The position numbers and the translations under genes were made by a program. The notes below the pieces were generated by a model, which was not told the DNA's origin, did not search any database, and saw only the letters and a list, made by a program, of their open reading frames with translations. DNA of 64,000 bases from Carcharhinus amblyrhynchos (Eukaryota): the NCBI GenBank assembly GCA_965287045.1, contig OZ336873.1:40920001-40984000 (forward strand), given 5' to 3'. This document shows positions 9,795 to 54,960 of the stretch, in pieces; position 1 is the stretch's first letter; every line of letters starts with the position of its first letter.

Positions 9795-9800
9795 TTTATT
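9795..9800 (-). terminator. Candidate poly(A) signal AATAAA for the minus-strand transcript
   Basis: tttatt on the + strand, ~150 nt downstream of the stop of the candidate terminal exon. Confidence 0.3.
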
Positions 9801-9947
9801 TTCTAAAGTAATTGCTGAGTAATATTTCAAAAGTAGAATTCAACATTTTTTCTGCCCCCACCCCAGAGAAAAGTACTATTTCAATCTGGTTTTCTATGTT
9901 TGTCTCAAATAACATTTTTCCTGATAACTTTTTAAGGCTGTTCAAAT

Positions 9948-10071
9948 TTAAAACTCGCCCGGAATCCTGACAAGTCCTTTTGTGAGTGAAGCTGCTCGAG
10001 TTTTCTTAACTGGCTGTTTCCAAAATAGAGAAGTTCTTAGATTCTCACGTCTGTAAAAACCGATGGTAGTG
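9948..10071 (-). CDS. Candidate terminal coding exon of an unannotated minus-strand gene (TTIGFYRRENLRTSLFWKQPVKKTRAASLTKGLVRIPGEF*)
   Basis: Strong acceptor cttcacttgttcttccttgtctttcag|C; open in phase 2 for 40 codons to TAA; phase matches the exon at 15581-15635; AATAAA downstream. Confidence 0.45.
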
Positions 10072-10260
10072 CTGAAAGACAAGGAAGAACAAGTGAAGCC
10101 ACCTATGCTGAGCTTTGAAAGGCAAACCCTTGGTAAAGTAATTACACGCAACACTGCTCCACAACTGATTTGTCAGAATTGCTTGTTAAAACTGTACTTA
10201 CCTATGTAAATATGGTTGAGCTTAACACAGTTTCCACGGATACTTCATTATTCCACTTTT

Positions 10261-10331
10261 GTTGGGGTTGGTTGGTTGGTTGGTTGGCTGGGGGGGGGGT
10301 GGGGGGGGAGGTGGTGGAGGTGGAGGGGGTG
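10261..10331 (+). repeat. (GGTT)n plus G-tract low-complexity repeat
   Basis: ggttggttggttggttgg followed by long G runs. Confidence 0.9.
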
Positions 10332-10794
10332 TAACTTGTTATCTGAGAATATTTGACTTAGGCATTATCCACCAATAAACTACTCTCACAGTCATTTGAT
10401 GATTTCCTTAATATGCCTATAAATTTATGTTGACATGTCCCACTAAAACTACATCAATTTCCCTTTGATGTTCCTACCTAACCCTCCCTCTAATGACATA
10501 CATTAAGCCACAGTACCTATTCAGAACACAGATGTTTGGATACGTGAACAACAAGCAATTACAAATAGAACTGATCGTGATATAGTGAAGTCTACTTCAA
10601 TGAATCATCTTACTTAGAAGAATCAAAACAGAAAATTCATTACAAAATTATTAAGCTCTACCTACTATTTAACTGTGCATCACCCAACAAACAAGGAATA
10701 AGTAATGTAACTGGAGAAACATTGTATCAGATCTATATTCAATTGTGACACTGATTCTGTATTTAGTTTGCATTGTGATAGCAATGGACATTTA

Positions 10795-11185
10795 GGGCCC
10801 GATTTTCCCATTGCGTTGTGCCCATTTTCTGGCGCAAAAACTTGATAAAGTTGGGTGTGAGGACATTAGTGCGATCCGCGCCTTTGCAGATGGCCACTTT
10901 AACAAGACCCAGGAATGGCTGTGATCCAATTTGCGCCTGAAACGGGCGCAACGGTGAGTTAGATGCATTTGCACACATTTAAATTGAATTAGTGAACTGC
11001 GTTTGCTGATCTGGAATTGCACCGAAATGGACAAGCTGAATTAAAGTCAGAATAGGGCGCTCCAGCTGCTGAATAGGCATGTTCAGAGCTTCCAACGGAT
11101 CTCTGACTCAGATCGGTGGTGGGGGGAGGAGGGAGGCACGTCAGATCATTCTCTGGTGAGGGTGAGGGGGGGGGGGGGAAGAGAA

Positions 11186-11243
<58 letters not shown>

Positions 11244-11904
11244 GATCATTGTCTGGTTGTGGGGTGGGGGAGGGGGAGGGCAGTGAGGCTGGCCACATCA
11301 TTCTTTGTTGAGAGGGTGAGGAGGGAGGAGGCGGGTCAGATGTACCTGTGGAGAGGGGGAGTAAGGCCAGGTCATTCTCTGGGGGTGGGGAGGGGAAGTG
11401 AGGCCAGATTATTCTCTTGGAAGGGAGGGAGGGGGAGGCAGTGAGGCCAGATCATTCTCAGGGAAGTTGAGAGAAATGCAAGTAAGACGTATTTCTGATG
11501 GGGGAAAGAGGCAGGGACAGAAGGGGCAGGGGTGTCTGCTGCTACTCTGCGGGCAATCGGTCGGGGAGGGAAGGGGACAGGGGGGCCGCAAATCGGTCTG
11601 CTTAGTTGGTGGGGGGAGGGGGGGGACAGTGATGGCTGTGGGGGCCATCACTCCAGCTTTTCTCTCCTGGCCACTTTCTCTGCTTTTTGCGGCTCAAGAG
11701 CGATGTGACAGGTGCACTTTTTCACATTTTTTTCCAATTGCACATGCACAGTTCAGAACTCCGGTAGTTTTGGGCGTGCCCACAGAGTGATTCAGACTGG
11801 CAATTTTTTTTCAGGCTGAGTGCTGATCTGTAAGCAGATTTCCAAGTCGGATCTGAATTGCACCCAGATTCAGCACTTAGAATGAAAATGGTAAAATCAG
11901 GCCT
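10795..11904. mobile_element. Non-autonomous PIF/Harbinger-type DNA transposon (MITE)
   Basis: TIRs gggcccgattttcccatt / aatggtaaaatcaggcct (15/18 match as inverted repeats); TTA target-site duplication at 10792-10794 and 11905-11907. Confidence 0.85.
11186..11243 (+). repeat. (GACGAG)n hexamer microsatellite, ~9.7 units, inside the MITE
   Basis: Perfect tandem gacgag; explains the spurious poly-RP ORF. Confidence 0.95.
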
Positions 11905-12489
11905 TTAATGTTTTTGGTAAAGGATAACTTCAGTTGTTGAAAAATCCCAAGTGGCCTAACTATAGGCCAATTGATTAAACTGGACCAAACACAAACTTTG
12001 CCTTGGAGTTTTTAGAAGATTCAACACTGTTTGAAGAATGTGAAACTCCCAAACTAAAATGCTCAGTTTTCCCCCAACCAGGAATCAATTCAGTTTCATT
12101 GGAGTTTCTTGGTAAATCAAATGCTGCCACAGTATCAAGGACATTCACTCCAACCTCACCTTTTGACAACAACTTGTATTAATGTGTTAACAAGGACTGT
12201 AATAAAGGTCCAGAGCTGAATGGTCCTGGTGTTTGAACAAAGTACAACCCTGTTCTATATTAATATTGTGTTAAATTCATAATCACAAAGCATGCTAGAT
12301 CTTTGGGGGCAGTTTTAAACAAGATCAGCAGCAAATACCATCTCTCTGCCGCTGATCACAAAATCTGAGCCAATCCAATTTCTCCCACAGAGTTAGGAAC
12401 GGATAGAGTATACTCCTGGTTAAAGTAATTAATGAAAATTTCATACTTTATAAAATAGTGGCAAGAACAGTTTCAGAACAAAAAACTGA

Positions 12490-13700
12490 GGTGGGGAGTT
12501 TCCACCCCATGGCAGGCAGGAGCGGAAAATATGAGAAGACTTAAATTTCGGTTTTGTCATTATGAAACCTATTCGCGATCATCCATTCCACCCATCAAGG
12601 GTGGGCTACATTTCCCACGCAGCATGTTGGAACTGTCATTTTAATACGTTTGCATCTCATTATACACACTTCTCATCAGATTCAACCCCCACACTGAATC
12701 AGGCCACGTTGACATAAAATTAGAATGATATGTTTCACAGTGGTACATAAAATGTGTGCACTACCAACCTGCACTTCATCACTTTGAGGTTAGTTCACCT
12801 GTCCTGAATCATGCAGGAATCAGTATCAGGCTTCACAAGCAGCACCACATCACTTTCAGGGGTAGCCACAGATATCTGTCTACCAGGCCAGTAATAAGAC
12901 GGGGTAGTTTTGTATGGACTGCAGAGTTAGGCCACCACTAAGGAAGAGGGCAGCTGGCCTCAAGCCGAAGAAGGGGCTGTTGGGTTGAGCTTTACTGGGG
13001 GTGTTGACTAGGGAAGGTTGCTAGGGATGTTTAGCAGGAGAAGGGAGGGGGGTAGGTGTGAGGCAGGAGGAGGATGGGGATGTATGTTAAACAGTGTAAA
13101 TAGCCTCAAGATGGGGCTGAATGAGGTCCACATGGGCCATAGGCTTCCACTTCAAAGTCAGACATTCATCAGAAGAACAATGGGATAAAGGAATACAGGT
13201 ATGGATGGATAGATCTGTGAGGAAGGGTAACCAGAACATGAAGGTCCTCTGGGAAGGTGGAAGGGATTTCCAAACAAAGAGGGTCCAAGCTGGTCTGGCA
13301 GTGAGAGTTCAGCACCACCACCTTCCAACCTGTAGTGTTGGCACAGTACAAAATTAAAATAAGAAGCTCTGCCGGTGAAGGCTTTGTGGGTGGACTGGAG
13401 GGCAGATACATGTGCTGCTTACAATGACCCGCAACTGAACTGTGCATTTCCAACTGAGCAAGAGGCACAGCTGAAACATGATAGGAATCTTTCAATGACA
13501 GTGCAGGGAATGAGGAAAGTCAAGCAATGATGCCCACTCATGAGAGAATAATCTCACAAAGTGACATAACCTTTCTCTGTGTTTTAACTCCTTATTCGCA
13601 GCATGGAAATTCCCCAGTGTAATAAGGAGCTCCACAAACTGGCAAATGGACAAGCTCCAGATGCCTGTCACAAAGTTGACACTAGATGCTACACTGAACA
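12490..13700 (+). mobile_element. Decayed Harbinger remnant (Myb/SANT-gene side)
   Basis: The ~13370-13525 segment ends ...cagtgcagggaatgaggaaagtcaag, resembling the QC-RK end of the Myb exon seen at 30922-31150. Confidence 0.35.
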
Positions 13701-13845
13701 GAAGCCTCAGGCCCTCTCAAATAATCTCAATTTCTGAATGAACATTTACTTTCCTGTTTATTCCTAAATTCACTATAGTGCAGGAAATGAGTGTGCACTG
13801 CCTGCACTGAAAGCAGCATATGAAAGCTCCTGGCCAAAGCAATAT

Positions 13846-14497
13846 TGTGGCAGTCTGTCACATTGAAAGTGGAGGGGGGCTATAATCTCAATACATACCC
13901 CGCACTAGCCATCATTTCAGATTGGGAGTATGGTATGACAGGGGAGCAAAGCCCTAGAATCCAAATTCATTGACGATTCATTGAAAAAAATGAGGAGTTT
14001 TGGAAACTAATGATGATACTTCTCGATTTCTCATTGATACTGCAAAGAGGGGACCATCAGGAAGATGGAGCTGAATTTATTGCTTCCTGTATTTTCACGG
14101 TCAGGCGGTAAAGAAGAAGACTCTGACAAAAGCACCTGGATTGCCAAAGGGGGATGCAACACCCACTAAAGGCCTGTATGATTTTGGTGCTAACGAATGC
14201 TGGAAGGGATTTAAGTCTGTGAGGCCTTTAAGGCTTAAGTTGGATAGATAGCTGTTAAGAATTATAGATTTTCATGTTCAAGTATCCCATTTGGCAAAAG
14301 TTCTGCTATTTCTTTTTGTTGCATTCAAAATGTTTTATTAACGAAAGTTTGTTTTGATAAAAACTTTGTGAGTCAATAAAAGCACACCTGGAGGGAAACA
14401 CCTCATGTCACACTAATGCCAAAAAAAAATCAAATAAAGTTGGGGGCCTCGGCTAACTTCATGATATACCTTGGAGTTTCTAATTTGGTCCCTAACT
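13846..14497 (+). mobile_element. Possible solo LTR
   Basis: Starts TGT, has internal AATAAA signals near the 3' end, and ends ...tttggtccctaac; no clear TSD. Confidence 0.3.
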
Positions 14498-15159
14498 CCC
14501 ATGAGAGCAACATTTGCAATAAATGGAATGGGGGGGCTGGGAAGAGGCCGGGGGTACAGATACGCACAGGGACCATGGCATCACACCTGATTTGACAGTA
14601 ATAGAGCTTACCATAAAAGGGAAGCCTACACAAGATGAAATACAAAATGGGTACTATTTGATTCACATTTGTGTACATGATATACACGTTGTGAACACTC
14701 GTACAACATTGTGTTCCTAAATATATGTTTAGCTTTCCTAATCTCACTGCTACATCGAGAAGTACCATCATTAGTTTCCAAAATTCCTGACATACAGAGG
14801 TGGAGTCAGCTTACTGGCTTCTACACTCTATTGTCTGTGATGACCTTGGCATGTGAGCTCTGGTGGCCTGAGAATTGGAGGATCCCAAGGTTGGGTATCC
14901 TGCTATGGAACAGGTGCACTCTCCTTGGTCAGTGGAGCTAGACGTGGTAGGTTCGTAAGAGAAGAGGAGTTTTGAATTGTTTAGAATCCTGGAGTCGCCC
15001 AGCTGGATGGCCTCAGGATATCCAGCTGCTAGTCCTCCTCCCTCTGGGTGTCCAAGTGTCGCTGGCTGATTCCTTGAAAAGGGGCAGCTGGAGTGAGATG
15101 TAGCCGCTGATGGATGCCACAAAGGGCTACAGGGATAGACTGCTGTTCCTGCGGTAGAG

Positions 15160-15475
15160 CAGGGAGTGCCATCTTTCAGACAAGATGTTAAACTGAGCCA
15201 AGCCTTCTTTCTAAGATGGACGCAAAATATCTCAGGGTACTAGTTCGGTAAGAAAGGGAGTTATCCACAATGTCCTTAGCAATACTTAGTTCTCAAATCA
15301 ACATCACAAAACCAATTATTGGGGCATTATCACATTCCTGTTTTCTGTGCAAATTGAGTGTCGCGTTTCCAATATTTCATGAGTAACTACACTTCATAAG
15401 GTACTTCATTGACTGTAACATGCTTTGGGACATCCTGAAATCATTGGTGCCATGTATATGTAAGTCGTTCTTTTG
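15160..15475 (+). mobile_element. Deu-domain SINE (SacSINE1/AmnSINE1-related)
   Basis: gtgccatctttcagacaagatgttaaactgag...gatggacgcaaaatatctcagggtact resembles the Deu domain; tail tacttcattgactgtaa..ctttgggacatcctga. Confidence 0.7.
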
Positions 15476-15580
15476 TACAAAATTGCAGATAACATTAAGA
15501 TGCAACAATATTCAGTTTTGGTAATTTATCTAATTTTGTAGAATGCTTTTTTGAGTTTCATCAATGGATTTTCTACCTAC

Positions 15581-15635
15581 GCAGATGCGGAAGGTTGCAA
15601 TATATGAGTTAAAGAAGATTTAGACTCCTTAGTGA
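15581..15635 (-). CDS. Candidate penultimate 55-nt coding exon (xTKESKSSLTHILQPSASx)
   Basis: Acceptor gtttcttattgtttcag|, donor |gtaggt; open frame in phase 1 to phase 2; splices in frame to 9948-10071. Confidence 0.45.
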
Positions 15636-15809
15636 CTGAAACAATAAGAAACTTCTGGAGGCATGTTATCCCAATGATTTTCCTTCAATGGATGGAAGCT
15701 AAATTTAAATTACTTCAGTCTGTCATTAACCTCTTTGTGTTGAAGATGATTCTTTCTGGTAGATGATTGGATGGAATTGAGATGTCAGTGTTGACTGTGG
15801 ATTCACAGA

Positions 15810-16060
15810 TGGTTGTGAGCCCTATCTTAGCCTTGCAGGCTTTCCCACAGTGAGGACACTGTTTGTCAGCCAGGAGAGATAGTGGCAGACTGTTGACTCA
15901 AGCAACTGTCCTCCCTTTCTCTCTCTTTTGCCGTTCTCTCTGTATTTGTTGATTGGAAGATCCTGACATCATTTTTGATGATGAATCACCTGCTTCCCAT
16001 GTGTTGGCATTAATAGAGCAGAACTTCATGGAGGCTTTAGACATATGAACAAATAATTTC
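15810..16060 (-). mobile_element. RTE-like LINE 3' fragment
   Basis: Reverse complement encodes CPHCGKACKAKIGL, like the C-terminal CxxC..RIGL motif of RTE-clade ORFs. Confidence 0.55.
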
Positions 16061-18059
16061 TTTAATCATATGCTGATGAACTAATGGGAGGAAAACTTTC
16101 TTTCTGCTGCCTGTAAGGTTCTATGTGAAATAATGTTGGGAAATCTCAACCAATTTCCATTGGCCTACAGCATAAAACAACCTTAATTCAGCACTAATCA
16201 TCAATTTTGTTTGAACAGGCTACAGAATAGATAGCTTGGGAAATAGAAAAATATCAAACTGGTCTAAGGAGGAGTGTACATGAGGTTGGGAAGAAGTATT
16301 TTGTTGGGGATAGACTTCCTTCTGTACCCAAGTGCCGTATACCTGAATTGAAGGTACTGAAACTATGTGCCTGAAATCAAAAGTGTCCCATTCCCCAGCA
16401 CTCACATCCTATAATTTTGAGAAAAAAAGAACAATTTACAAATCAATAAATTTTGCTCCAACCTATGAAGATTTCAAATGAAGTATTTTGAAGAAGAAAT
16501 AATCTCAAAGAGTAATGCTCAAGACAAACAAATACCAATCATTTTTCAAATTAATTCAGCTCATTCGACATTTTTTTTCATGTCTGCTGAATGCTGGGAA
16601 GTCCATGTAACTTTGTGCCTTCTATAATCAGCATTTTAATTCCAAAAGACCTAACCACAAAGTTTCAGGTTGTGTTCTCCTCACCAACTGATGGATTTCC
16701 TCAGCTCACCAGTTACAAAGCTGGAAGTGCTACAATCTGCCTGGTCCATTTGATAACATTTGCACAGCTACTCATTCTACCACTCAAGGATGAACAGTTT
16801 TAAAACACCTTTTAAGATTTGAAATCAAAAATGTGCCTTTTTAGTCTAGCAGTTTCTAAAACAAAATTAAAAATTGCCAATTTCAATGCAGCCATGTAAA
16901 GGATTTTTTTTAAGAGCAAATAAAAACCATCCCAAAACAAAGGATGAAAATCACCTTGCATCATTCCAGATGCCTTCTAGCAACTATATTATAAAAGGCA
17001 TGATCAGAAAGTATAAAACAAGCTACTCATCCCCTTTCTCAGCTTGGGAAAATAGTGCAGAGAAGAAAAAAAGGGGACACATGATGCTTAAAATAAATTT
17101 AAATTCTAATTGTATAGAACCAATAAAATCAACAACTATTTTATTTTTAATTATTGAAGGTATGTCCAACAGCTTTCCTACCATACCCATAAGGTTTGTG
17201 ACCACATGGTTTATGGTAATACACTTGTTTCACCATTATTTGTCACTGAATCCTCCTTCCAAGAGATTAATAAAATATCTGAAGATATGCATATATGTTT
17301 TTAGTCACAAAACAAACTATGGAACTAAAAAAATCATTTTAAAACCGATTAGCGAAATAAAAGGGGTCAATCACCTTTTGAAAGAGCCAAAGGCAGATCA
17401 CATAACTTACTGGTTGGCATGAAAACAGAAACACCATTGTGCTTGTAGTACTCCTCATTAAAACTAAATCAAACTTAAATTAATGAAAAAACATTTAATT
17501 ATGAGTGTTATAAATAGAATATGCAGCAAAGGTCAGTGAATTATGATTTTTATTTCCATTCTTGAGACAGGCCATAATTTATCTGAACTGTTTATGGTCA
17601 TAACTTATCGAGTCTGCCTCATTTGTGGAAGTAAAAATGTCTCACTGCCCTCTGTAGCATGACCTCAACATATTGGTTTTAAGTTTCATTTAGTTAATGG
17701 TATGAATACATAATTGTAAAAATTTCACTTAACAAAATCACATAATGCTCTAACTCAATAAATAATGTCAGCATTGCAACAATTCAGTTTAATTCAATTT
17801 TTCTTGTTTCTTCATTAGATTATGCTGTTTTGCTAAGTAATGGACATTGCTCATAACTGTACTGCTTTCAAAAGTGCTTTGAATATAGTGCATAAAATGC
17901 ACTTTTCAGGTCTACTGTATAATAAATCAACAAAATATGCAAATAATTTCAGAAACTTTATAATTTTAAACAATTATATTTAAGAGATATGTTAAGTAAG
18001 ACAGTGTTAAAATAACACTGGTGCTTTAAGTAAGAAAGTATGAAACATCTCACGTTATT

Positions 18060-18330
18060 ATTGCATATACATGGGTTCTGTTTCGGCACCATCCAGAATA
18101 AACACAAATTTTCATGATTAATTTGTTGCCATCCATCAGCTATTTTAATCATAGGTGCATCAACTAAAATGGATATATTTTGGTCATGTGACTTAATTCC
18201 GTTATGGCTTGACTGCACTAAATGGGAACTACATCACAATGAGACCTCTGATCGCTGTGAGCATTTCATGTGGTAATCTGTTAAGTAGTTGTTACGTCAT
18301 AATGTCTCCCTCAGGATTTCTAAAATGCTG
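18060..18330. promoter_or_regulatory. Candidate conserved non-coding element
   Basis: Repeat-free; PBX-HOX site TGATGGATGG on the minus strand (18129-18138); several TAAT cores. Confidence 0.35.
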
Positions 18331-19124
18331 CCACATTCTAAGAATCAAGCATACTTAGCAATTCGTACTTACTCCTACCTTTTTTATTAAATGCACAATA
18401 TAAACAATTAGAACCAGCACAATTCAGTTGCGTGTTTTGCAGGAAATAAAACTTTTTTTTTATGTATTACTGTTTTACAGTTAAGGTCAGCTAAATTACC
18501 CGTAATATTTTTAAAAAGGCACTATATATAATACTGTTTTGCATATTTTGAAGAGCTTGCCATCATTATGGTCACATATCATAAACAACATTTATTTAAA
18601 AAAAAGCACAACTGCCTGCCTTATACATTTCTTGCTTCCAATCAAAAATAAGCTCCTTTTTTCCTGTCTTTTGATGAAGATAGCAATTTACGTTGGAATG
18701 CAGCTGCAACAACAACAATTTTCCTTTACCTCAGTCAAACGAATACTCTATCTGTGATGACAAAAGAGTATCAACCATCATGGCAAAACCAAACTCAATC
18801 CTGCCCTGACATCCAGACACTCATATGTTCCTGCACGGAACACTGCATAGCAATCAGGAGTAAGAAAACTGCCAATTTTTCTTCTCTCTCCTGCACATAG
18901 TGAGAACGGTGCCTTATTCCAACTGGGGAAGGTAGCTGAATGTGAACCTGAAATTGAACCAGACCACATTTAAGGTGCAGTTGTTCACTCAGCCATTAGA
19001 GAAACCCAAAAAAACCCTTAAAAATTGTAATCTGCAAAATGGCAACTGCTATATCCTCAACACAAGAACCTGCCATTAACTTGGAAAATGGTGGGTACGT
19101 CTAGTGTTCAAAAACACAAGACAT

Positions 19125-19475
19125 ATTTAGATTTATATAGCACCTTTCATGGATGTCTCAAAGTATTTTCTAGGCAATGAAGTACTTTTGAAGTTGTAAC
19201 ATAGAAACAAAGGCAGCCAAATTGCACACAGCAAACTCCCAAAAACAGCACTGCAATGATGATCACATAACTTAGTTTTTTTGTTATGTTGACTGAGGGC
19301 TAGATATTGACCAGGACACTGGAAAATAACTCCCTGTTCTTTACTAAAAGTGGTGGCATTGAATTTTTTTTTACGTCAATCTGAGATGACAGAGTACTCC
19401 TTCACTACTGTACTTGAATGTCAGCCTTGATTTTTGTGCTCAGGTGCTGGAGTGGGACTTTAACCCATAATTTTG
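19125..19475 (-). mobile_element. Deu-domain SINE, split by the adjacent CR1 (its head resumes at ~20387-20426)
   Basis: atttatatagcacctttc...ccaggacactggaaaataactccctg...gagtgggactttaacccataa, continuing after the LINE as ttttatgattcagaggc...ctgaaccatggccgaca. Confidence 0.7.
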
Positions 19476-19479
19476 CAAA

Positions 19480-20385
19480 TTGTGTGGAGGGTGTGGAAAG
19501 TCTGCAGAGATCTGGATAGGCTGAGTGAGTGGGCGAGGACCTGACAGATGGAGTATGTCAGCAAGTGTGTGGTTATCCTCTTTGGCAGAAATAATAGTAG
19601 GAGGGATTATTATTTAAAAGGCGAAAAGCTGCAGCATGCTACGCTGCAGAGGGACCTGGGGGTCCTTGCGCACGAGTCGCAAAAACCCTGTCTGCGGGTG
19701 CAGCAGATGATCAAGGAGGCGAATGGAATGTTGGCCTTTACAGCGAGGGGGATAGAATACAAAAGTAGGGAGGTCTTGCTGCAACTGTACAGCGTACTGG
19801 TGAGGCCGCAGCTGGCGTACTGTGTGCAATTTTGGTCGCCGCACTTGTGGAAGGATATATTGGCCTTGGAGGGAGTGCAGAGAAGGTTCACTAGGCTGAT
19901 ACCGGAGATGAGGGGGTTAGCCTATGAAGAGAGACTGAATAGACTGGGTCTGTACTCGTTGGAGTTTAGAAGGCTGAGGGGGGAACTTATAGTGCCGTAT
20001 AAGATAATGAAGGGGATAGATAGGGTAGAGGTAGAGAGATTCTTCCCACTTAGAAAGGATAGCAGGACTAGAGGGCACAGCCTCAAGATAAGGTGGGGGG
20101 GGGGTGCAGTTTAGATCGGAGTTGAGGAGGAGCTTCTTCACTCAAAGGGTGGTGAATCTCTGGAATTCTCTGCCCACTGATGTGGTGGAGGCTACCTCAC
20201 TGAATATATTTAAGTCACGGGTGGATAGGTTTCTGATGGACAGGGGAATTAAGGGTTATGTGGAGAAAGTGGGAAAGTGGAACTGATCCACTTCAGATCA
20301 GCCATGATCTTATTGAATGGTGGAGCAGGCTCAAAGGGCTAGATGGCCTACTCCTTCTCCTGTTTCTTATGTTCTAATGTTCTTA
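19480..20385 (+). mobile_element. Young 5'-truncated CR1 LINE
   Basis: ORFs 19548-20114 and 20104-20286 (LVRPQLAYCVQFWSP, FFTQRVVNLWNSLP); ttcttatgttct-type tail. Confidence 0.95.
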
Positions 20386-20426
20386 ATTTTATGATTCAGA
20401 GGCTAGCATCTGAACCATGGCCGACA

Positions 20427-20619: not shown

Positions 20620-20639
20620 CTGGAAACCATAAAACGTCA

Positions 20640-23050: not shown

Positions 23051-23059
23051 ACAATACGA

Positions 23060-41830: not shown

Positions 41831-44800
41831 TTGTTATATAAACAAACATTTAATTTAAATGGTTTCTGCATTTGCCTGTTCTATAAGTGAGGCCAACTAC
41901 CTGTCAATATTACATAGCAGTTTTTTCCTGCTAATCAATTATGTATGCCTCACATGAAGCACATGAGCAATTTCACTGTAAATTAACTCCTGCAGGAACT
42001 TACAGCCTTTGATATGCATAGGTTCCATAAAAGTAAGAATAGTACTTAAATGTTTTTTCTTGGTACTATGAATACAACTATTTCCATATTCTATTATTCA
42101 CAAAATAAAAAAATCTGTGGTGCATGTGTGGCACATCAATTTAATCGGATAAGTAATGAATATATGAATTCACAATAGCACTCTATACATGGTAGCATGT
42201 ATCTATGTACTGTATAATAATCCATTGCATTGTGAATAAAACACAAATGACTGTCTTTCACCTCGAGAGTCACAGGTTTCAATACCCAAAGGAAGAAAAT
42301 GATGAAAAAGCCTCTGTCTTTTGCCTTGGGGCAAGTGTATTGGACTGGTGACTATTATCCAGCTACCTAAAATACTAAAGGTTGCACGAACAGCATGGCA
42401 CAGAATATTATGATAGATACTGCAGAGTGCATACAGTCTCCTCTGACATGGATTAAGGGGTTTCTCAACAAAGTTGTTTTTTCCCCCCACTGGGGATTTC
42501 ATTTGCTCCAAATCTCTCTGCTCCTATTTTCCTCACTATCTAAAAATCCAAAGTAAAAGTGTTTCGATTGGATGAAAATAAACACCAAAGAACTCAAAAG
42601 TATCATAATTATGCCCCCCTAACACTACTGAGAGTAGTGACTTTACAGTATTTAATCAGATAAACAATGGTGCCGGTTATTTACTTTGTTAAAAATATCA
42701 GTCCTGTAAAAAAAACCTCGAACACTGTAAACATCCTTCAGATCATAACTGTAACAAGATACATCATTGTAATGTGTAATAAGGGTGCTGACAATATGTA
42801 GATATGGGAAGAGAAAGAGAGAGAAAGAGGGAAGTTGTGGGAGAAGTTAAGTCATAGCAAACTTTGAAATTGTATAATTGTCACAAGGGATGCTGACCAC
42901 AGAAACTCACTGTTGTTGAGACTCTGTCACTCTCAAAAACTAAAGTCAATCATGTCTGATTTGTTTATGTTTTCTTTCAAACTAGCTAAACAAGATGTTG
43001 TTTTATAATGATAGAGTTGGCAAAACTATCAGTGTGCGCTGTTACTACTCCTCCGACTGCAAATTTTGAAGTGCACATATACGTGCAATCCACATGGAAA
43101 TGCAAAACTTGCTGTCTGTGAGTCCACACTTCCCATTAGGATCTGCTACTGAAATCTCCCCAGACTGCAATTATGTAGAAATCACTGAACTGATAAGAAC
43201 TTATCCTTTAACATTCATAATCTTGTTGCAGAGGCCCTTGAAAATGCTGGTGCAATTGGGTTTTTAAATGGCATAATAAGTTTAGAATTACTGCTGAACA
43301 GACTCAATAGTCCTGAAAAATTAATTTCATAAATGTAGATTGGCAAATTTCTGTTATGATAAAAAAGGTAAAAAATATGTTTTTAAAGTTTATGCTATTT
43401 TAGCTTATTTAATGCCATATAAGTTCCAATCTTTTATTTCACTCTCTGTAAAATTTTAATTAAAAGTGAAAACTTTAGTGTATTTTACTTCCTGGTTGCT
43501 GCCTGCGAGAATACTTCAATTTGATTGACTAATTACCCTGCTTAATGATATCACTGTTGCTGGATGCCTGGAGATCCCCTTGCCTAGCACGAGATTCAAA
43601 CTGATGTTGAAAATGACAAAATCTATACTACATAGATAACTGGACCTTTGAAAGAATTTCCCTTAAGGCCAGCAGCAAGCATCCTTTCTTCCTCACTGAC
43701 TATAAAATCCAGGATATTAATTTTGAATAGTTTCTATTATTGTTAGTTATATCCATTGTGAAAGTTATTTCAGTTGGTAAGGTGGTACCTTGGAGCTTAC
43801 ATCAAGGAAAGTATGAGCAATTTGGGGAGTCTTTAGGACTGAAATAGCAGTCATGGTGTCCTATGGGAGGAAAACAATAGTTGAGGCAATTGTGGAGGTC
43901 TCAAGAAGGGACCTTTATGGGCACTGTACAGAAATGGTTACTATAACAATAGTATCAACATTGCGACGACTAAGTGTACAATATTGTACTGTTGACCACT
44001 AAAAAGGGAGAAAATGTTGGGGATTTAGTGGAACAGATAGGCTTACTGTCCCTTTTCACCATAGCATGCAGGATCATATCCATGGAATAAATGTCTTTCT
44101 TCTGATATTAATGCAATAAAGAGAGTTTGGATTGCTGTTGTCTATTTCAAATGGCAAAGGAATGATGGCAAGAAGTCATTCCTGAAATCTGCAATCCTAA
44201 ATCAATATGACTCTGTGGAAAATGACAATATTCCAACCCAGAGGCAACATTTAGGACAGAGGGAGGCTTACTTTGCAGTTATTTATTCAACAACTAATCA
44301 GAGTGGTTGGTCCCAATGCAGAGTGCCTGATTTTGAAAAAAAATTCTAATTACAGAATAAAATTAAAATGTAAGGGAAATCTACATAGACTGAAATGTTT
44401 AACTACTTAATAAGTAATTTAGATATAGTAATTTGTTTCATTTAATTCAAATTGGTAAACTGAACATATAGATGCATTTTATACTTTGAGGATTATGTAC
44501 AACTCTGATCAGAAAATATTACAACAGCAGCATTACATTCTGCAAAGTTTTTGTACTATTCTACACATTTATAAATTTTCCAATAAAGTAAATGATCATG
44601 TGACTCTCCAAACGTCCAAATGTTTTCCAGCAGTTAACACATCATAATGGCACTTTTCCAATAGCTACTTCTCTTTCACTTAAACTAATAAAAACCTGAG
44701 TCTAATCTCATGAGTCAATCCAGTCAAAAAAACTACTTTGCTTAATTAAAAAAAAATCGTTAGACTTGCATTCAGCCTGTAAAATATTCTAGAGGCATGG

Positions 44801-46849
44801 ATTTCATGCTTTTTATATATTGTAGCATTATTAATTGGCATCTTGCATTCCATGTACAAATTCAGCTTTTACAATAAAAGCCACTCGGCTGATGAAACTT
44901 AGAAGAAAATTGTGTCCATTGCACTACACAGGTGAGATTATTGCATTGAAATATAACAAATTTGCAACAGATGCTAGATGCAACATACTAACTACTTAAA
45001 AGATGCATATATTCTACAAAGTGCAACAATAAAGCATTATTATAAACAAAATTACATTTAATAATTGGACATAATTGGAGTACAGTGGACAGAAAGTGTA
45101 TCAAAGATAATACTGATGCTTACCTGGATAATTTAGCTATCCAGATGCATTAAGGTACACACAATTGGCTCCCATTAAAATAAGCTATCCAGATAAATAT
45201 TATAATATAATTGATGGCACAGCACTTGCAATTTTGGTCCCATCCTACTGTGCTCTATTATGATACATGTAACACCTTTAGCCAAAGAGATTTAATTTCT
45301 ACCATCAATACAACACAATGTATACTTGTAGCTTTTAGATATTTAAATGAAAATATAAAAACATGCGAATTAAATTTAGGAATAGCAATTACTGTTGAAA
45401 ATAATAGCACATTGCTAGTTTTCCTGCAGCTTTGTTGCAAATATTTTAACATGGTTCTCTCTTCAACAAACAATATAAATATTTCCATGCCAAATCATAG
45501 AGAAGCTTTTCAAAATAACTATTCTGACTGCCAATTCTCACTGCAGGGTCTGGGGACATGACTTGCCCAGTAAATTAACAGGTACCTTATTTAGGCATAC
45601 CCAATACACTTCAGGTACATTGTGCTCATTAAGCATCTATATATTTTGGAGTTCATGAAAATGAGGAATTTAATGCTGATAATAAGGCATCCATTATCAG
45701 CATTGAGTACTTGCAGGTCTAGAATAGTGCCCACAAATAGAGTGAAATTTTCTTCAATATAGCCCACCATTCCCCAATATCAAAAACTTACTTTCTCTTG
45801 GTCAGAGCTGAACTTGAACCCAGGTCTTAGAGACCAAGTGGGAAAATGCTAGCAGCTCACCCTTTGCTAATTTACCTACAAAACAACAGGGACCACACCT
45901 CCAAAATAACTGTGAGCCAGAGAGCAATTTGGAAAATCCTAAACAAGAGTAAGATGCTAACTAAAATCAAATTCTTCTTTCTCATTCAGGAATTTGAAGC
46001 GTATTTGTGGAAACTGTATTCATTATTCCAAGCAACTGAAGCATTCCATGACACTAGATTCTTGGCTAACTTACATCTTACAACTTCTCAATTGCAAACA
46101 GTATTGAAAATCTGGTGTACTCCATGAAGCATACACTGTTGTAATTATCTAATTTTCAAACTGGATTTTTAAATTTACAAAATGTTAACAGCACAAAAAT
46201 ATCTGCAAGTTCAAAAACTAGAAATGTGACAATGGGACAAAACACAGAAATACGCAAACCTTGATATAAATAGCAAAGTTTTTGTGCACACTGACTTATC
46301 AACAGTAGCAAAACTTTTAGAATTATAAGTTATACTGCAAAAAAAAACCCTCAAAACTATTCAGAATAGTTAAAATTTACTTATCAAATTGCAATGCATG
46401 ACATACTACGCCATAACAGAACTTGCATCCATTAAGGCTAATGAAAGCATACTAAAGCATTTTTGAATCACTGAGTTGTCAGGTTAGTATCTTAATGGAT
46501 CTGAGCATACAGACAGTTCTCGTTGCATGCATTTTTCTTTCAACAAAGAGTTTGGTGAGAGGACGTCATGTATAAATATCATGAAACATAAATGTAAAAA
46601 ACTTTCCAAAGTATTGAGATGTCAAATTAGTCTCCACAAGTTAACAGATTGAAATTTCAGTGTTCAAGTATCAGAGTGATTCATTTTTAAACTTTGTTGC
46701 AACATTAGGCTTTTATAAAGTTATGGCAAAAATTAAGTGTTTACAACTCATCGTGAAAGTCAATTATACATGCTCTTAATAACAATAATCATGGACATCT
46801 AGTAGGAATTCCAAGCCCAGATAGCATTATTATAAATCATAATCACTTA

Positions 46850-47450
46850 AATAAATGCATCATCACAATACAACTTTGCTATTATTTCTGCATATTTTTA
46901 GGTCGGGTATATGGTTGTTTCATTACATCTTAAGAGCCTGACAAGAAAATTCACATAGTTAATATTGATTAATACAATTAAGTAACACACCCCAAGTGTT
47001 GTATGGTCAATTAAAATGAAACACTTATAGCCCCAAGTACCCATTAATCTAAATATTCATGCAACTTTTCATTGAGTGATTTATTACAAATAAAGTAATG
47101 CATTATATGCATTAGTCCAATTGCTAGCGTATACAATGTCCAAATGAACGGGCTTAATAGATTAGTTTTCATGAGACTTGCTTGTTCCAAACAAATAAAT
47201 GGTGGCAATGTTGAAAAACCATGCTCTGATGCACCAAATGTCTGATCATAGTTAACAACCAATATTCTACTGGGCATTTAATTCAGTAATCCTGCTTTCA
47301 AACCAATACCAGTTCCTAGTTTTTTTCAAACCAATCTAATAATGTGATAGGCAAAGTAAATGCATCAAGCTGAAGCCGAATCTCCAAACGTTTTGTAACG
47401 CCATCATTTTTCTTATAATTCTAATGGATTTACTCCAGACACGCCCCATT
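46850..47450. promoter_or_regulatory. Candidate conserved non-coding element
   Basis: Repeat-free, dense TAAT/ATTA cores, TGATTTATTA PBX-HOX-like site at 47077-47086. Confidence 0.4.
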
Positions 47451-48044
47451 ACCAGAGTGGTCTTGCAAGGAAGGAAATCCCACTCTGGCTAAAATACGTA
47501 TTTTTTTAAACAAAAAATTCTGAAGAAACAATTGGCAGATTCCATCCCACCATAAACAAACAGGGTTGTTAAGGAAACCTAATTAATGCATATAAAACAT
47601 TAAACGGTATAGAGAAACTGAACCCTGAAAATTACTCTAAAGAATTCATGTAGAGAGGACCAAAAGGCATACATTTAATTTAATGGAAAATAAATATAAC
47701 ATATTAATTCTTCTTTCCTCCTCCACACAAAAGGTGCTAAACATTTGGAACATGATTCCAGAAAGATTATAGCATCAAAACGTGGAACATTCAAAATGGA
47801 ACTTCTGCTGTCGAGGGTGAACGTGGAATGAGCTGTAGCAGGCCATTGAGCCCTTTTGCATTTGCAACTTTTGCCCTATTCCCTTAAATTCAAAACGATG
47901 GGCAGTTTATAATAATTACATAACAGTAATCCCACATAGTATACCATGGCATCTAAACTACAAGATTGGAACTCCAACAGTTCATAATAATCACTCCTTA
48001 AGCCCCAGTGTTATATTAGCAAATCTATACCCCTTCTAAAGTCG

Positions 48045-49292
48045 AAGAACAAAGGACAACACAGCACAGGACCAGGCCCTTCAGCCCTCCAAGCCTGCAC
48101 AGGTCATGTGTTCCTAACTAGGCTGTTTGTATTCCTCTATTCCCAGTGTGTTATGTGGCTATCTAGATAAGTCTTAAATGATCCTAGCATGTCTGCCTCA
48201 ACCACCTTGCTTGGTAGTGCATTCCAGGCCCCCACCACCCTCTATGTAAAATACACCTCCCGCATATCTGTATTGAACCTTGCTCCCCTTACCTTGAACT
48301 TGTGACCCCTTGTGTTTGTCATTTTCAACCTGGGAAAAAGCTTCCAGCTATTCACCCTATCTATGCCCTTCATAATTATATAAACTTCTATTAGGTCGCC
48401 CCTCAACCTCCATCTTTCCAGGGAGAACAATCCTAATTTACTCAATCTCACCTCATAGCTAAGACCCTCCATATCCAGGCAACATCCTGGCAAACCTTTT
48501 CTACACTCTCTCCAAAAGCCTCCACGTCCTTCAGGTAGTGTGGTGACCAGAACTGGATGCAGTATTCCAAATGTGGCCTAACCAACATTCTGTATGACTG
48601 CAACATCATATGCCAACTCTTATACTCTATGACCCGTCCAATAAAGACGAGCATGCCATATGCCTTCTTCACCACCTTTTCCACCTGTGTTGTCACCTTT
48701 AAGGATCTGTGGACTTGCATACCCAGATTCCTATGTGTCTCTACATTCCTGATGGTTCTGCCATTTATTGTACAGCTCCCCCCTGCATTAGATCTACCAA
48801 AATGCATCTTTGCATTTATCTGAATTAAATTCCATCTGCCATTTCTCCGCCCAATTTTCCAGCCTATTTATATCCTGCTGTATTCTCTGACAATGTTCAT
48901 CATTATCGGCAACTCCAGCAATCTTTGTGTCACCCGCAAACTTGCTAATTAGACCAGCTACATCTTCTTCCAAATCATTTATGTATATCACAAACAGCAG
49001 AGGTCCCACTCGTCACAGGCCTCCAATCAGTAAAAGACCCTCCACTGCTATCCTCTGTCTTCTATGGCCAAGCCAGCTCTGAATCCATCTAGCTACTTCA
49101 CTCTTATCACCCATGTGATTTAACCTTTTGCACCAGCCTGCCATGACGGACCTTATCAAATGCTTTACTAAAGTCCATGTAGACGACATCCACGGCCCCT
49201 CCCTTGTCAATCAATCCACATAGACAACATCCACAGCCCTTCCTTCGTCAATCAAAGTAGATGACATCCATGGCTCTTCTCTCGTCAATCAA
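48045..49292 (-). mobile_element. 5'-truncated CR1 LINE
   Basis: Minus-strand ORFs with GPLLFVIYINDL, SKFAGDTK, LVRPHLEYCIQFWSP; 3' tail at ~48045; triplicated 5' junction. Confidence 0.95.
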
Positions 49293-51137
49293 CCAGTCAT
49301 CTTACCTATTTGTACCCAAAAAGGGCTTGAGGCCGATCTCAATATTTAAAATCGATTTTATATCTGATTTAATTACTATTAGTGAGAACGAGTTGGAATT
49401 GGCCAGTCTCACTTGCCTTTGCAGTGTTGCAGGTCAAAGTCCTCACTAGCAAGGATCACGTATGGTCCCCATCAATGGGAACCTGGCATGATGGCCTCAT
49501 CAGTAGGACAGGAGGAAACAAATCTTGCTTCATTTTTTCCTCAAAGTGTAGTAAGATTGGGTATTTAGCCCAAAAAAAATTGGCACAACTCTCTCCTGTT
49601 TTCATGCTTGTCCGTGCTCCTCCCCCTCCCCACAATATATATTTCCAGTGGTTCAATTCTCCAGCTGGGGTTTGACTAAGGTTGTGTCCAATTGAAGCAT
49701 CATTTATCATTTTTATATTCCAGTCCTCTCAAGATAAATCCCAGTATATCCTTAATCTTGTTGATCATTTTTGTACCTTCATAATAACTTGTTAGTAATT
49801 TAAGTCCATGGGCATTCAAATCTCTTTGCTCCTCCACAGCTCCCAATCTCTCACCTTTAAGAAAATATTTTGTTTGGTCTCCCTCAGATCCAAACCGAAA
49901 AAAAAACTCATCCTTTTCCTTCTTAAACTTAATTTTTCATAAATTTTTCCTCACTCACTTTGTCCTCCACATTCCTAATTGTGCAAGGAATCAAATCAAA
50001 TTAACATCAGGTGATAGTAGGCTAGTGCACAGCAACCAGGAACAGCAGAATAAAAGTTTACAGAGGATGCCAGCTCTTTATAACTCCCTAATTGATCATA
50101 CTTGGAGTACTGAGTTCAGGAGTCATCACCTGGACAATAAGGAGAGATTTTTTCAGATGGTAGTGTTTCCCATCCTGAAAAGTCAGCAGGGACACATCCC
50201 CATCAATTACAACAGCCCTACAGCTATTTAACACTAATGCTCTGAGGAATGTTGATTGGCTGGGGATGAAACTTCCACCCCTGAATAGGGTGGAAGTCTA
50301 ATATCAGAGAGCGGATGATCAATCTGAATGAGTGAGTGGTGGTTCAAGGTCCAAGCATCACAGTGTTAGCAGTGGGCAAGATTGGGACTACAAAAGCAGC
50401 CGCCAGATTTCAAGTCCAGGACCAGGTAGGGTGGGGTGGAGAATCATGTTGGAGAGGACCAGTAGGCAAGATTTGGGGATTGCCCAAATTGGAAAGGATT
50501 GAGGAGAAGGGTTGCGGAGTGGCACCACTGCTCCCCACCGACTTTACACGCAAGCCCCATGGAGGATAATCTTCTGGCTTCCCCTTGTCCCTGAACTCTA
50601 CCTGCCTGCCTCAACATTGAAGCTTAACTGGCCAATAATCTGTCTCTTAAGGATCTCAATTGGGATGAGGTTAGGTTGGTCACTCATGGCCTCGACCCTG
50701 ACATAAAATTGAGGAGGTCAGGAGTGGCAGGAGAGTAGTGGGAAGGCCACTCAACTGCAGACCAGCTGATAGGAAGTCATAAATTGCGATCCTAAAAGTT
50801 ATATGGTGTTAAAGTACAAGCAGAACAACAGGACTGACCCAAGGAATAAAAAGAAACATACGGTTATAAAAAGATGTAATTTAACAAACAGATGAGAAGA
50901 AAATATTGGCAACATGGATGAGATGAAAATAAATTAAAATGGGACAAGAGAACATCATTAAAAATAAAGAGAAAATTTGGAGTATCAATAAACACTCAAA
51001 AGTGATAATATTTGGAATAATGTGTCAAATAAGGTAGTAAAAGCAAAAACATTAGTGCTATTCAAAATATAAGTATGGTGATGATCAGATTAACACATCC
51101 CTAATTTTTCTGGTGTTCGAAAGAAGCATATACTTAC

Positions 51138-51420
51138 AAATAGCAAAATAGATAAGCATATTACATGGATTCCAGAGAAGGTCTTAGAGACAGCTTTATG
51201 TGAAGTGTATATCAAGTTTGATCAGAAGTTGTAGAAAACAACTCATTGCACTTCTATCTTCAGTCTCTTTGGACAGTACTGAAATACACCAAGTCTGACA
51301 TTCAGCGTCGCATGATATGCTGTAAATTGTGTTAGGATCATATTTTCTTACAAGAAGGAAAAGTCAGAATCTGACAAGCTGTTTATATTTTCATCACAGC
51401 ATGTAAAATTATGGAGAAAC
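51138..51420 (-). other. Candidate 283-nt exon of the divergent transcript (stops in all three frames)
   Basis: Acceptor aatttcattttcag|G, donor ttt|gtaagta. In phase 2 it reads FLHNFTCCDENINSLSDSDFSFL*. Confidence 0.35.
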
Positions 51421-52847
51421 CTGAAAATGAAATTGTAATTTTGCAGCATTGAGAAAAAAAGGCTGCATTAGTCCTTAATATATACTTTGAACAGTTGGTA
51501 AAAATCTGTAATAATTTTACTTTTACAACAATAGGTATTTTAGCCATCATTATTCATATTTAATAGATAGATTGACAATGGCAAAAATCTGTGTTGGCTA
51601 TAGCTCAAAACCATTTTTTAAAAATTAATACCTGAAAATACAAGTTTGTGTGGTATTGGACAATGCAACAAGTGATGTTCATAAGGTACAAAAACCTCAA
51701 CAGAACTTTAATATTCAAGAATAAGTAAATTCAAAGTATCTTCTGATTATTTTGATATTTTTATTCTGTTGTAAGAATTTGATCCATCTCAAAACCGCAT
51801 AAATACAATGGGAAGTAATGTATGTAGACTTCTTTTTCCATGGAACTAACCAACCACTAACAAACAGAAAATTAAATTTCAACAGTATCTGACTAATATG
51901 AAGTCAAAAAATATTGTAGTAAAGACTGGATACAGGTACTTCATGGTCTAAGTTTTAAAAGGAAATACACAGTTTTTTGTTTCATTATTCTTGTATTTTT
52001 TTTGATACTGTAAATTTGCCAAAATAGGCAAATTGATTTCAGTGGGAAAGCCTTACCTCTTCTTCTACCATAAAACCAATTTTTGTAAGCGCATCTTAAA
52101 AATATTTTCTGATTGCCTGGAAAGATAAAGAGAGATATATATTCAAACAAACTGGTCCATAACACATTTCTAAGGGTTTTTTTTTAAATGCTAGGTCATT
52201 CATTTTACAAGATTCATGTTTTTACATAGTGTTGATTAAATTATTTTGTACTTGTTTCTCTTCAAGTGTCTTGATATTGTCTTGTACATTTCGGGTACTA
52301 CAGCAAGATGTGCAAGGCCATAGACCTGTTTATAGTTTGATATAGAGCATTTCAATTTCTTCTTTCTATGCAGGACTGCCATGCCCAGCTGAGAACTGAT
52401 GAAGCTCAAGCAGTGGCAGGCAAATGCGATTGACAGGCATAACTATCATTTGAACCTACAACCATTCTTTTGTGAGACAAGCATTCTACTACCTGTGATA
52501 GGTTAATAGCTACTTCTCCCACCACAGAGAAGTCTGATCACTGTACATCTTTGTTACAGGATTCACAGTTACAGATGCAATTTACACAAGTAAATTGTTT
52601 AAATAGTCGGGGAAGAAAGTTAGCATCAGTAAACATTTCCATAAATCCAAGACTTCTTTTTTAAGTTTTTTCAACAACAACTGGCACACTGCCATACATC
52701 AAGTATAAATACAAGAAAAATATGAGCACTAGTAAAGTTTACATATCTATTTAGAAAACTGTATAAGTGTTGTAATAATATTTGCTCATCTTACAGCTTC
52801 TCATTATACAGTTTTTCAAAACAAATGTTGCAGCAATACAAAAATAC

Positions 52848-53008
52848 CTCAAATACGGTGCATTTTGTTTTATTTTTAATTCTGATTTCTTCTCCCAAAT
52901 CCATTTGAATCTCAAAGACGCTGTCAAAATTTGTGAAATTTCAAGACAAGGGGCACTGTCTGGGTACAGCATTTCATCACGAATTTGCATAATAATGTCA
53001 GTTCCAGT
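52848..53008 (-). other. Candidate 161-nt exon, open in phase 0
   Basis: Acceptor aatcaatttttttag|, donor gag|gtattt; TGTDIIMQIRDEML...APYL without a stop. Confidence 0.3.
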
Positions 53009-54447
53009 CTAAAAAAATTGATTGTACTTCTACAGTAATAGAGGAGTCATTTTGCATTGCAGTGATTGTGACTTTGAACATGTATAGAAGTAACAACAAT
53101 TTTATTCAGTAATTCTATATATTCATACAAAGGCAAATACTATGGATGGAAATTAATTTACCCAATAATCAAAAATGTGTCACCATAAAACAAAATAGAT
53201 CAATACATTATGATACATTATTAATAATCACTCCCAATCGTGATTTTTATTTTCATCTTGCAAAACTAGGTAGGACCTGTGTGATAGCCATGCAGAAATC
53301 CTTAGTAATTAAGCACTGTACAGGATGGTTAAACAATTTGTAGCAGTCCTGAAAAAAAGTCAATGTATACACATCACTGCCTTTTCCAGGATCAGCGGCA
53401 AAATAACAATTCGCATTTACAATTAAAAGATTCTATCCCGAAAATACCATTCATTAGGTTACCTCGTGTTTGAAAGGTTACTTGTTAGATTAGTTGTTAG
53501 ATTGGTTGAGGCAAAATACGATTCATCGAAATAGTAAATACAAAATGTAGCTTGTTTTTGTTTGTGTGTCCAATTGTTACATTGACAAAACAAATGCAAC
53601 AAAATAATTTAAACAGGATTATTTTGGTTAAGGTATTATGTTCGCCCATTCATTCCTTCCAGGAAATATTTTTCCAGAGTAACCGTTTATACAGAACTAA
53701 CATCTAATGCGGGTATTTGCAACTTGTGATGTATAGGTTTAGGGGAAAACAAGTTGCTTTATTTAGAAAATGATGCCGGTATATTTTCAATTAACCTAAA
53801 GGCTAGCCAGGGCTCCCCTAATCTTTTACTTTTGTTTTCCGAAGGGTTCACAAACCAAGCTGTCCCGGAGTTAAACCTATCACGGCATCGTCTGTATGTT
53901 TGGTTGTCAGCAGACACAGAAAAACGTGCTGACGACTGCCAGCTTCCTCCAGGCAAACCTGCCGATCGCAATCAATTTCAGGTCACGAATTTCAAATCAA
54001 GGACTTAAGTTTTCTCTGACGGCCGGGGCCCCTCAGCATGTGTGTGTGAAATGCAGCAGCGTCCCAGCTCCTGGGCACTCGGCTACAAGCACTGTGATAA
54101 CCGCGAGTAAAACTACACCTTGCTTCCAAGACTGAGCGTAAATTGTTGGCTCTCCCTTCGTTGAGGGGAAATCCATGATCTCTATGCGATTCCGTTAGAA
54201 TATTATTATTATTTTTACCCACACACCCTGGAAGCTGGAGAAAGCTGTGGGGGTGAGACGAACATTCGTTGTACTCAACTTTTTAACAACATTACCAACA
54301 CAATAAATAATTCGTTTTTTAAAAAACACAAAATGTCCTAACGTTCAGCAAATGTCAGTTGCAAATACGCACGGGAAGAGGAATGTAATAAGCGGAGGGT
54401 TTGAATTGCCCGGGATCGCTAATAAACACAGCGAGTGAGTGACTTAC

Positions 54448-54600
54448 CCCGGTAGGACGGGACGCTCCAAACTACACCGCCCCGCTTTAAAGACGTTGAC
54501 TAGTTGGGAATAGTTCATCTTGCGGTGAATGAGAGTTGGAATAAAAGCCGCCGCCGAGGTCAAGCACTGCCGTCTCCAAGGGTGACGGACGGTGCTTGAA
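54448..54600 (-). other. Candidate first exon of the divergent transcript, with ATG at 54518 (MNYSQLVNVFKAGRCSLERPVLP-G)
   Basis: Lies at the edge of the CpG island; consensus donor CGGG|GTAAGT; ATG in aagATGa context. TSS position is an estimate. Confidence 0.55.
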
Positions 54601-54960
54601 CTCCGCCGCGCGCGCGCGCCACGCTTCCGGTCGCCCGGCCCGCTGCCTTGACAACCGAGTTGGGCGAAGCGGATGTGACGCCGGGGGAAGGTCCGCGCGC
54701 AGATTGGGCGGGGTTTGAGGTGCCATCCACCCTGCTCCGCCCCCTTCCCTCCCTCCGACCCGAGCGTCAGCAGCAGTCATCTCCCCGTCATTGGCTGGAA
54801 AGCTATGCAAATGAGTAAGCGAACTAACCAATCAATGGGAAGAGGCGACACTCTCGTCCTCCGCCCCTGTCCCCTCCCCGGAGCATACGCGCACTGAACG
54901 TCGGGATTTGTAGTTTTTCTTGCCACACTAGAACTACACCTCCCGGCACAGCTCGCGCCT
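54540..54960. promoter_or_regulatory. CpG-island, housekeeping/bidirectional-type promoter
   Basis: GGGATTTGTAGT (54903-54914) and ACTACACCTCCCGGCA (54933-54948), ZNF143/THAP11-type motifs back to back; CCAAT x3 (54703, 54790, 54828); GC boxes; ETS CTTCCGG (54624); (GC)n NRF1-like run; X-box-like GTTGTCAAGGCAG; octamer ATGCAAAT (54805). Confidence 0.85.

Follow-up and report, generated by a model that had tools for sequence, protein, structure and literature searches.

An apparent Sowah pseudogene head-to-head with irx5 in a shark, and its possible relation to CRNDE

We analysed a stretch of 64,000 nucleotides from the genome of the shark Carcharhinus amblyrhynchos (assembly GCA_965287045.1, contig OZ336873.1, forward-strand positions 40,920,001 to 40,984,000), hereafter the window (G000:C4:40920001-40984000; C1, C2, C4, C10, C13 and C16 denote contigs of this genome). 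Its right end carries the beginning of an Irx gene, which we take to be irx5 from its N-terminal sequence and from cluster order, and 7.9 kb from the irx5 ATG, head-to-head with it, lies the former start of what is almost certainly, judged by its sequence, a pseudogene of Sowah. The parts that fall within the window are as follows; the promoter region is defined by sequence.

54400..54999, minus strand: CpG-island promoter of the Sowah pseudogene (GC 0.60, 54 CpG, observed/expected ratio 1.02; motif positions)
54448..54563, minus strand: Sowah pseudo-exon 1, formerly coding part (winged-helix N-terminus), placed by protein match and a GTAAGT donor
52117..54447, minus strand: Sowah intron 1 (2.3 kb)
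52057..52116, minus strand: Sowah pseudo-exon 2 (60 nt), with CAG/GTAAGG ends and an in-frame TAA at 52098-52096
1..52056, minus strand: first 52 kb of Sowah intron 2 (84.4 kb in full), with copies of long and short interspersed nuclear elements (LINEs and SINEs)
62467..64000, plus strand: irx5, with ATG at 62467, exon 1 to 62703, homeobox exon to 63461 and the beginning of exon 3 (Homeobox_KN, E 1.4e-18)

Pseudo-exon 1 is identical to the Heptranchias perlo protein P0273 at 17 of 28 residues (E 8e-4 within the window), gives the top score for its peptide on the minus strand of 902 kb of C4 (44.5, against 28.5 for the next) and is followed, after base 54448 on that strand, by the donor GTAAGT. 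Pseudo-exon 2, two nucleotides shorter than the 62-nt exon of a paralogue linked to irx7, is identical to P0273 at 13 of 18 residues, again with the top score in the 902 kb (63 against 32), and is the best minus-strand acceptor-donor pair in a blind splice scan (6.9 + 7.0). Individually both exons are weak (E 0.012 and 0.021 in the 902 kb), yet each is top-scoring, stands in the right order and ends at a donor; in a database of 12 segments they match Sowah orthologues with E values of 1e-6 (exon 1) and 2.5e-6 (exon 2).

The remainder of the gene lies outside the window. When the Heptranchias and Callorhinchus proteins (P0273/P0277) were compared by tblastn with the 902 kb of C4, their matches followed one another collinearly along the minus strand in the desert between irx3 and irx5, with E values down to 1e-31. 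Ten collinear minus-strand Sowah exons span 507 kb between irx3 and irx5, a lower bound for the length of the gene; eight of the ten lie 32-452 kb to the left of the window. Exon 5 and the micro-exon were selected partly on their splice ends, the others on protein match alone.

C4:40887610-40887357, minus strand: Sowah exon 3, 32.4 kb left of the window
C4:40759593-40759471, minus strand: Sowah exon 4
C4:40677572-40677511, minus strand: Sowah exon 5
C4:40659804-40659703, minus strand: Sowah exon 6 (102 nt)
C4:40610357-40610346, minus strand: 12-nt Sowah micro-exon (TAG/GTAAGT), its translation identical to that of Callorhinchus
C4:40546785-40546699, minus strand: Sowah exon 7 (87 nt)
C4:40531060-40530988, minus strand: Sowah exon 8 (73 nt)
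C4:40467644-40467547, minus strand: Sowah exon 9

All ten exons are followed by a GT donor, reading GTAAG in eight of them, and all nine downstream of exon 1 are preceded by an AG acceptor, giving 19 canonical splice ends. P0273 bears the winged-helix domain PF25877, and its residues 1-150 are matched by exons 1-3, while the ankyrin part (exons 6-9) matches P0277 at 79-84%, 76%, 79% and 53%; across the aligned parts, identity to Heptranchias reaches 84-92% in exons 3 and 6. The protein positions at which the exons meet agree with those of the irx7-linked paralogue on C16, with which the exons of 102, 87 and 73 nt and the 12-nt micro-exon are held in common. The orientation agrees as well: the pseudogene runs on the minus strand with its 3' end towards irx3, itself on the minus strand, and the C16 Sowah gene likewise lies upstream of its Irx gene and points in the same direction.

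With the first desert exon as query, 16 candidates were recovered, of which five are orthologues from two species: Heptranchias perlo XP_067853670 (257 residues) and the isoforms of Callorhinchus milii LOC103176098 (XP_007887671, 409 residues), all predicted SOWAH-like proteins. Other sharks and rays are missing among these orthologues, which is weak evidence for a wider loss. In a quick tree of 22 rows, the read-through of the pseudogene groups with Heptranchias and Callorhinchus at a support of 100 in the approximate likelihood ratio test of the Shimodaira-Hasegawa type (SH-aLRT), with branches of 0.35 versus 0.025, and this clade is sister to a spliced clade of the irx7 type (support 94). 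The two proteins resemble the pseudogene exon by exon and in their layout of winged helix PF25877 plus ankyrin repeats, whereas their models are open and the shark copy is broken in seven of its ten exons. The Heptranchias model ends after exon 6, as do several models of the intact irx7-linked paralogue, probably an annotation gap at the micro-exons. At C4:40659825-40659805, seven residues with which exon 6 begins in the orthologues are spelled in this shark by the pyrimidine tract of the acceptor that the paralogue uses, which suggests that the tract was exonised in the Heptranchias/Callorhinchus clade, the upstream AG being missing here.

Disabling changes occur in seven of the ten exons, exons 7 and 8 and the micro-exon being open. 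Positions in the following list are those of the window.

Exon 1, 54563-54561, minus strand: TTG where the orthologues have the start methionine, plus two in-frame deletions
Exons 1-2: joint net frameshift
Exon 2, 52098-52096, minus strand: in-frame TAA
Exon 3: one base lost, in a run of A
Exon 4: TAG stop
Exon 5: one base lost
Exon 6: TAA stop
Exon 9: frameshift

A relative-rate comparison with Callorhinchus as outgroup assigns 41 changes to this lineage and five to Heptranchias (p=1.1e-7). The proportion of ancestral residues changed (22.9% of 179) corresponds to some 0.12 substitutions per site under neutrality, a figure that falls to about 0.10 if a constrained phase is allowed for, and exon 1 is the most altered exon (13 of 27 ancestral residues). 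The stop and length of exon 2, as well as the 3' 75 nt of exon 1 with its donor, are the same in an independently sequenced related organism (A) and are therefore not assembly errors. The contig of organism A that covers exon 2 differs by 18 substitutions and 20 gap letters in all; only one of these, a substitution (52076), falls inside the exon, outside the stop, and, as we read it, would alter a glycine kept in the orthologues. This reading of lesion sharing among relatives covers organism A only. For a second relative, organism B, there are 114 differences from this genome over about 4200 positions, and we infer that the decay is several times older than the split between the two. The longest ATG-initiated frame amounts to 80 residues in the full splice form, at most 94 residues in 511 exon-skipping forms and 40 residues from the ATG remaining in exon 1.

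In a homeobox search of the shark genome, C4 and C2 each proved to carry three Irx genes, and C16 a single one. Those on C4 lie at 40.100 Mb (minus strand), 40.983 Mb (plus) and 41.646 Mb (plus), the gene in the window being the middle one; the names irx3, irx5, irx6 and irx7 are those that we presume from sequence and cluster order. Directly upstream of irx7 and on the same strand lies an intact, spliced Sowah gene (C16:45056662-45182743), open in all ten exons examined; the ancestral Irx-Sowah block survives at this locus. Four intronless, single-frame Sowah genes of 665, 382, 699 and 620 codons are found at C10:64.59 Mb, C4:129.26 Mb, C1:108.15 Mb and C13:21.95 Mb, respectively; this shark thus already has the intronless set. 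Its intronless SOWAHC shares 93% identity with the Mustelus asterias counterpart. Because an intact spliced copy stands beside irx7 and four intronless copies exist elsewhere, the irx5-side Sowah is redundant. At the IrxA cluster (C2:44.9-46.9 Mb), no Sowah match was listed in three genome searches; the region itself was not fetched, and remnants there are possible.

Two side observations concern the wider history of the family. SOWAH-like multi-isoform models of Ambystoma, Microcaecilia, Rhinatrema and Latimeria group with the spliced clade of the irx7 type (support 95), and some tetrapods may, on this sequence grouping, keep an intron-containing Sowah, contrary to the tetrapod loss stated in the earlier note on this DNA. 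Among the 13 relatives recovered in a weak search with exon 1 of the irx7-linked gene there were no Callorhinchus proteins, although the irx5-linked copy is annotated in that species; reciprocal Sowah loss between the chimaera and this shark is a possible reading.

Taken together, the window very probably holds the promoter and exons 1 and 2 of a disabled Sowah gene that contains introns, extends over no less than 507 kb towards irx3 and likely still yields a non-coding spliced RNA. The copy would be an ohnologue of the irx7-linked Sowah, and redundancy with the other Sowah copies would have freed it from selection on its protein, later than its divergence from the Heptranchias lineage but long before that from the sampled shark relatives. 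Its DNA would likely have stayed in place owing to Irx enhancers in the Sowah introns, by analogy with the established Irx-Sowah block, in which Sowah DNA persists because Irx regulatory modules lie inside it. The CpG-island promoter is likely active; a spliced RNA, if one is made, would encode no more than about 94 residues.

That the pseudogene is still transcribed is the part of this reading towards which we lean slightly, on the strength of the intact CpG island, a strand skew and the kept splice sites. The island has an observed/expected CpG ratio of 1.02, against 0.20 at 30-47 kb, and because its CpGs have been retained where exon 1 has changed more than any other exon, it appears to be unmethylated in the germ line. 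A motif scan of the island returned matches to what we take to be ZNF143-type (ACTACA, three times), ETS, cAMP response element (CRE) half-site, CCAAT, octamer and GC-box motifs. Strand skew of the transcription type, seen as minus-strand T>A and G>C, averages +2.6 in 50 blocks of the gene body and -3.4 in 30 blocks beyond (p=8e-5, the blocks not being independent); it reverses past exon 9 and is strongest in the 84 kb nearest the promoter (mean 4.2).

Several points weigh against our reading, some bearing on the gene model and others on its activity. The pseudogene is orthologous to the Callorhinchus and Heptranchias genes as far as sequence and the quick tree indicate; the base lost from exon 3 is possibly an assembly slip; and the acceptor required for the seven extra residues of exon 6 is absent from this shark. 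The last coding exon was not located in ungapped scans of 40.10-40.47 Mb, in which 4551 acceptors were scored, and a search for single-codon micro-exons gave an unconvincing single candidate in the three expected introns versus two in a control intron. With regard to activity, of the 15 splice sites located through protein match alone, 14 or 15 remain intact, a borderline result (P 0.03-0.22 under neutral decay of 0.10-0.12); the strand skew may have been left behind by the old gene or be an effect of replication; and LINE orientation has no gene-specific bias (42:29 inside the gene versus 22:13 beyond it).

These latter points leave a silent pseudogene as a serious possibility, if one that we do not adopt: its exons would decay neutrally, and the CpG island would survive only as a regulatory element of irx5, either an enhancer or an island of the Polycomb type. 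Splice-site retention not clearly above the neutral expectation, the heavy alteration of exon 1 and the unbiased LINEs all agree with silence, and CpG islands near developmental genes are common as a matter of general knowledge. Against it stand the high CpG ratio of the island and its dense motifs of the housekeeping type, which are centred on the former exon 1, some 6 kb away from the island that irx5 itself has, together with the GTAAG form of most donors and the peak of the skew in the promoter-near 84 kb.

In an improbable alternative, the old Sowah promoter would drive a short isoform, a spliced RNA of its own that covers 45 kb. The earlier note had proposed a decaying, intron-containing Sowah gene head-to-head with irx5, and in this it was right: the orthologue matches are collinear, and the CpG-island promoter and consensus minus-strand donor at 54448 that it named belong to exon 1. 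The search with intron-containing Sowah proteins that it had suggested found these exons with the chimaera and Heptranchias proteins, and the relatives' models are open. Its picture of a locus of about 45 kb, assembled from ten minus-strand segments and ending at an AATAAA, has to be given up, since the gene spans at least 507 kb and the segments sit in its introns, one (53008-52848) in intron 1 and nine in intron 2. The segments do exist, nearly all with AG/GT ends (20619-20427 is followed by TGT instead of GT), and none lies in a locally repeated element; moreover, the human and chicken CRNDE are short multi-exon RNAs from a promoter divergent to IRX5 (PMC3509318 and PMC6868825), so that recruitment of new exons is possible. 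However, none of the ten matches Sowah orthologues (best E 0.54 in the database of 12 segments), only four of the nine internal segments pass both splice criteria, and their splice signals are at chance level: at 9.8-54.4 kb the same criteria yield 151 acceptor-donor pairs for the minus strand and 106 for the plus strand. The donor of 53008-52848 is likewise not conserved, the G at 52847 being another letter in all four runs from three related organisms. The AATAAA is present at 9800, but the minus strand of the window contains 53 copies of this motif, and a poly(A) end at 9800 is unsupported. The segment 53008-52848 had also been considered as a coding exon for its open frame and was dropped, as its donor is not kept in relatives and it has no Sowah match.

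Early searches pointed away from Sowah altogether, as exons 1 and 2 are detectable with true orthologues only. A Pfam scan of 226 minus-strand frames of at least 45 residues and three plus-strand frames gave a reverse transcriptase and the irx5 homeobox as the only credible matches, with no ankyrin; 120 SOWAHC-type proteins reached a best tblastn E of 0.05 in the window; and tblastn with 15 irx7-type proteins, as well as hidden Markov models of 15 and 74 proteins, left the window blank except for the LINE-derived tail of one model. The first hint of the gene came from an irx7-type protein with two weak collinear matches in the irx3-irx5 desert, both of which are exons that agree in size and phase with those of the paralogue (102 and 87 nt), one with a stop. 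As for the remaining content of the window, a 414-codon reverse-transcriptase frame with a zinc-binding tail (26284-27912, minus strand) belongs to a non-LTR (long terminal repeat) retroelement unlike the common local LINE, repeats are present between Sowah pseudo-exon 1 and irx5, and there are no Rfam matches. One search for paralogous non-coding elements in other Irx clusters, made with 39.1-48.0 kb, returned only a repeat family among the 40 of 1480 candidates that were scored; 43018-43720 is an old dispersed repeat, of which about 40 copies were scored elsewhere in the genome at 68-82% identity.

Finally, it is highly improbable that the Sowah protein is still made, its lesions being errors of assembly or bypassed in splicing: open frames persist in exons 7 and 8 and in the micro-exon, and exons 3 and 6 remain close to Heptranchias, but the three substitution stops, the lost start, the several indels, the exon 2 lesions in common with organism A and protein change eight times faster than in Heptranchias speak against it, and no splice form opens more than 94 codons.

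An Iroquois-Sowah genomic regulatory block, with pseudogenised Sowah remnants in tetrapods, was reportedly described by Maeso et al. in 2012. Excerpts of other sources likewise hold that the linkage is maintained by Irx regulatory modules inside Sowah (PMC5803294, PMC5585340) and that pseudogenised Sowah remnants beside Irx genes are known in tetrapods (PMC5803294, PMC5585340, PMC3342872). As in those remnants, an intron-containing, Irx-linked Sowah has here been pseudogenised in place, with intronless copies elsewhere. The shark case differs in that the loss is likely independent and young enough for ten exons and their splice ends to be still legible, and in that an intact spliced paralogue beside irx7 means that redundancy did not come from retrogenes alone. 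It allows the dismantling of a bystander gene inside a genomic regulatory block to be read exon by exon outside the tetrapod lineage, with an intact outgroup (the chimaera) and an intact paralogue at hand as controls.

The second comparison is with the long non-coding RNA (lncRNA) CRNDE, divergent to IRX5 from the same island, at a distance of 2 kb in human and of 1.2 kb in chicken, which the excerpted sources report in all tetrapods examined, with a span of 30-84 kb and with its best-conserved parts in introns (PMC3509318, PMC6868825). The Sowah promoter shares with CRNDE the side of irx5, the strand, the orientation opposite to irx5 and the CpG island, and CRNDE is multi-exonic and non-coding; in the shark, however, the island is separate from that of irx5, exon 1 lies 7.9 kb from the ATG and the gene exceeds 500 kb, in contrast to the 1.2-2 kb and common island of CRNDE. 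Because the Sowah promoter occupies CRNDE's position, CRNDE may descend from Sowah, and that the two promoters are the same is a plausible proposition, argued from position, that we stop just short of calling probable; divergent lncRNAs arise readily from bidirectional promoters, as also noted in part of the literature. More tentative still is the joint reading, in which tetrapod CRNDE would be the re-used promoter of an IrxB-linked Sowah, whose model is still open in chimaera and a hexanchiform shark, and the shark studied here an independent living intermediate, with a dead frame, kept promoter and splice sites, and a non-coding RNA across the irx3-irx5 desert. No publication linking CRNDE to Sowah was found in the literature covered, partly as titles and abstract openings; Maeso 2012 lay outside that scope and may mark remnants there. 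The nearest parallels are lncRNA fossils of coding genes (Hezroni et al., PMC5577775) and loss relics of the Wen type (PMC10195156), which share with this locus a lost coding gene whose promoter and exons could be re-used by a non-coding RNA; CRNDE, Sowah and IRX are unnamed in the main texts of both papers and in four supplementary files of PMC5577775. Sowah remnants beside Irx genes were thus already known, and the shark pseudogene, its open counterpart in the chimaera and the coincidence with the position of CRNDE make a good test case, in which a protein-coding origin of a much-studied cancer lncRNA becomes testable by alignment.

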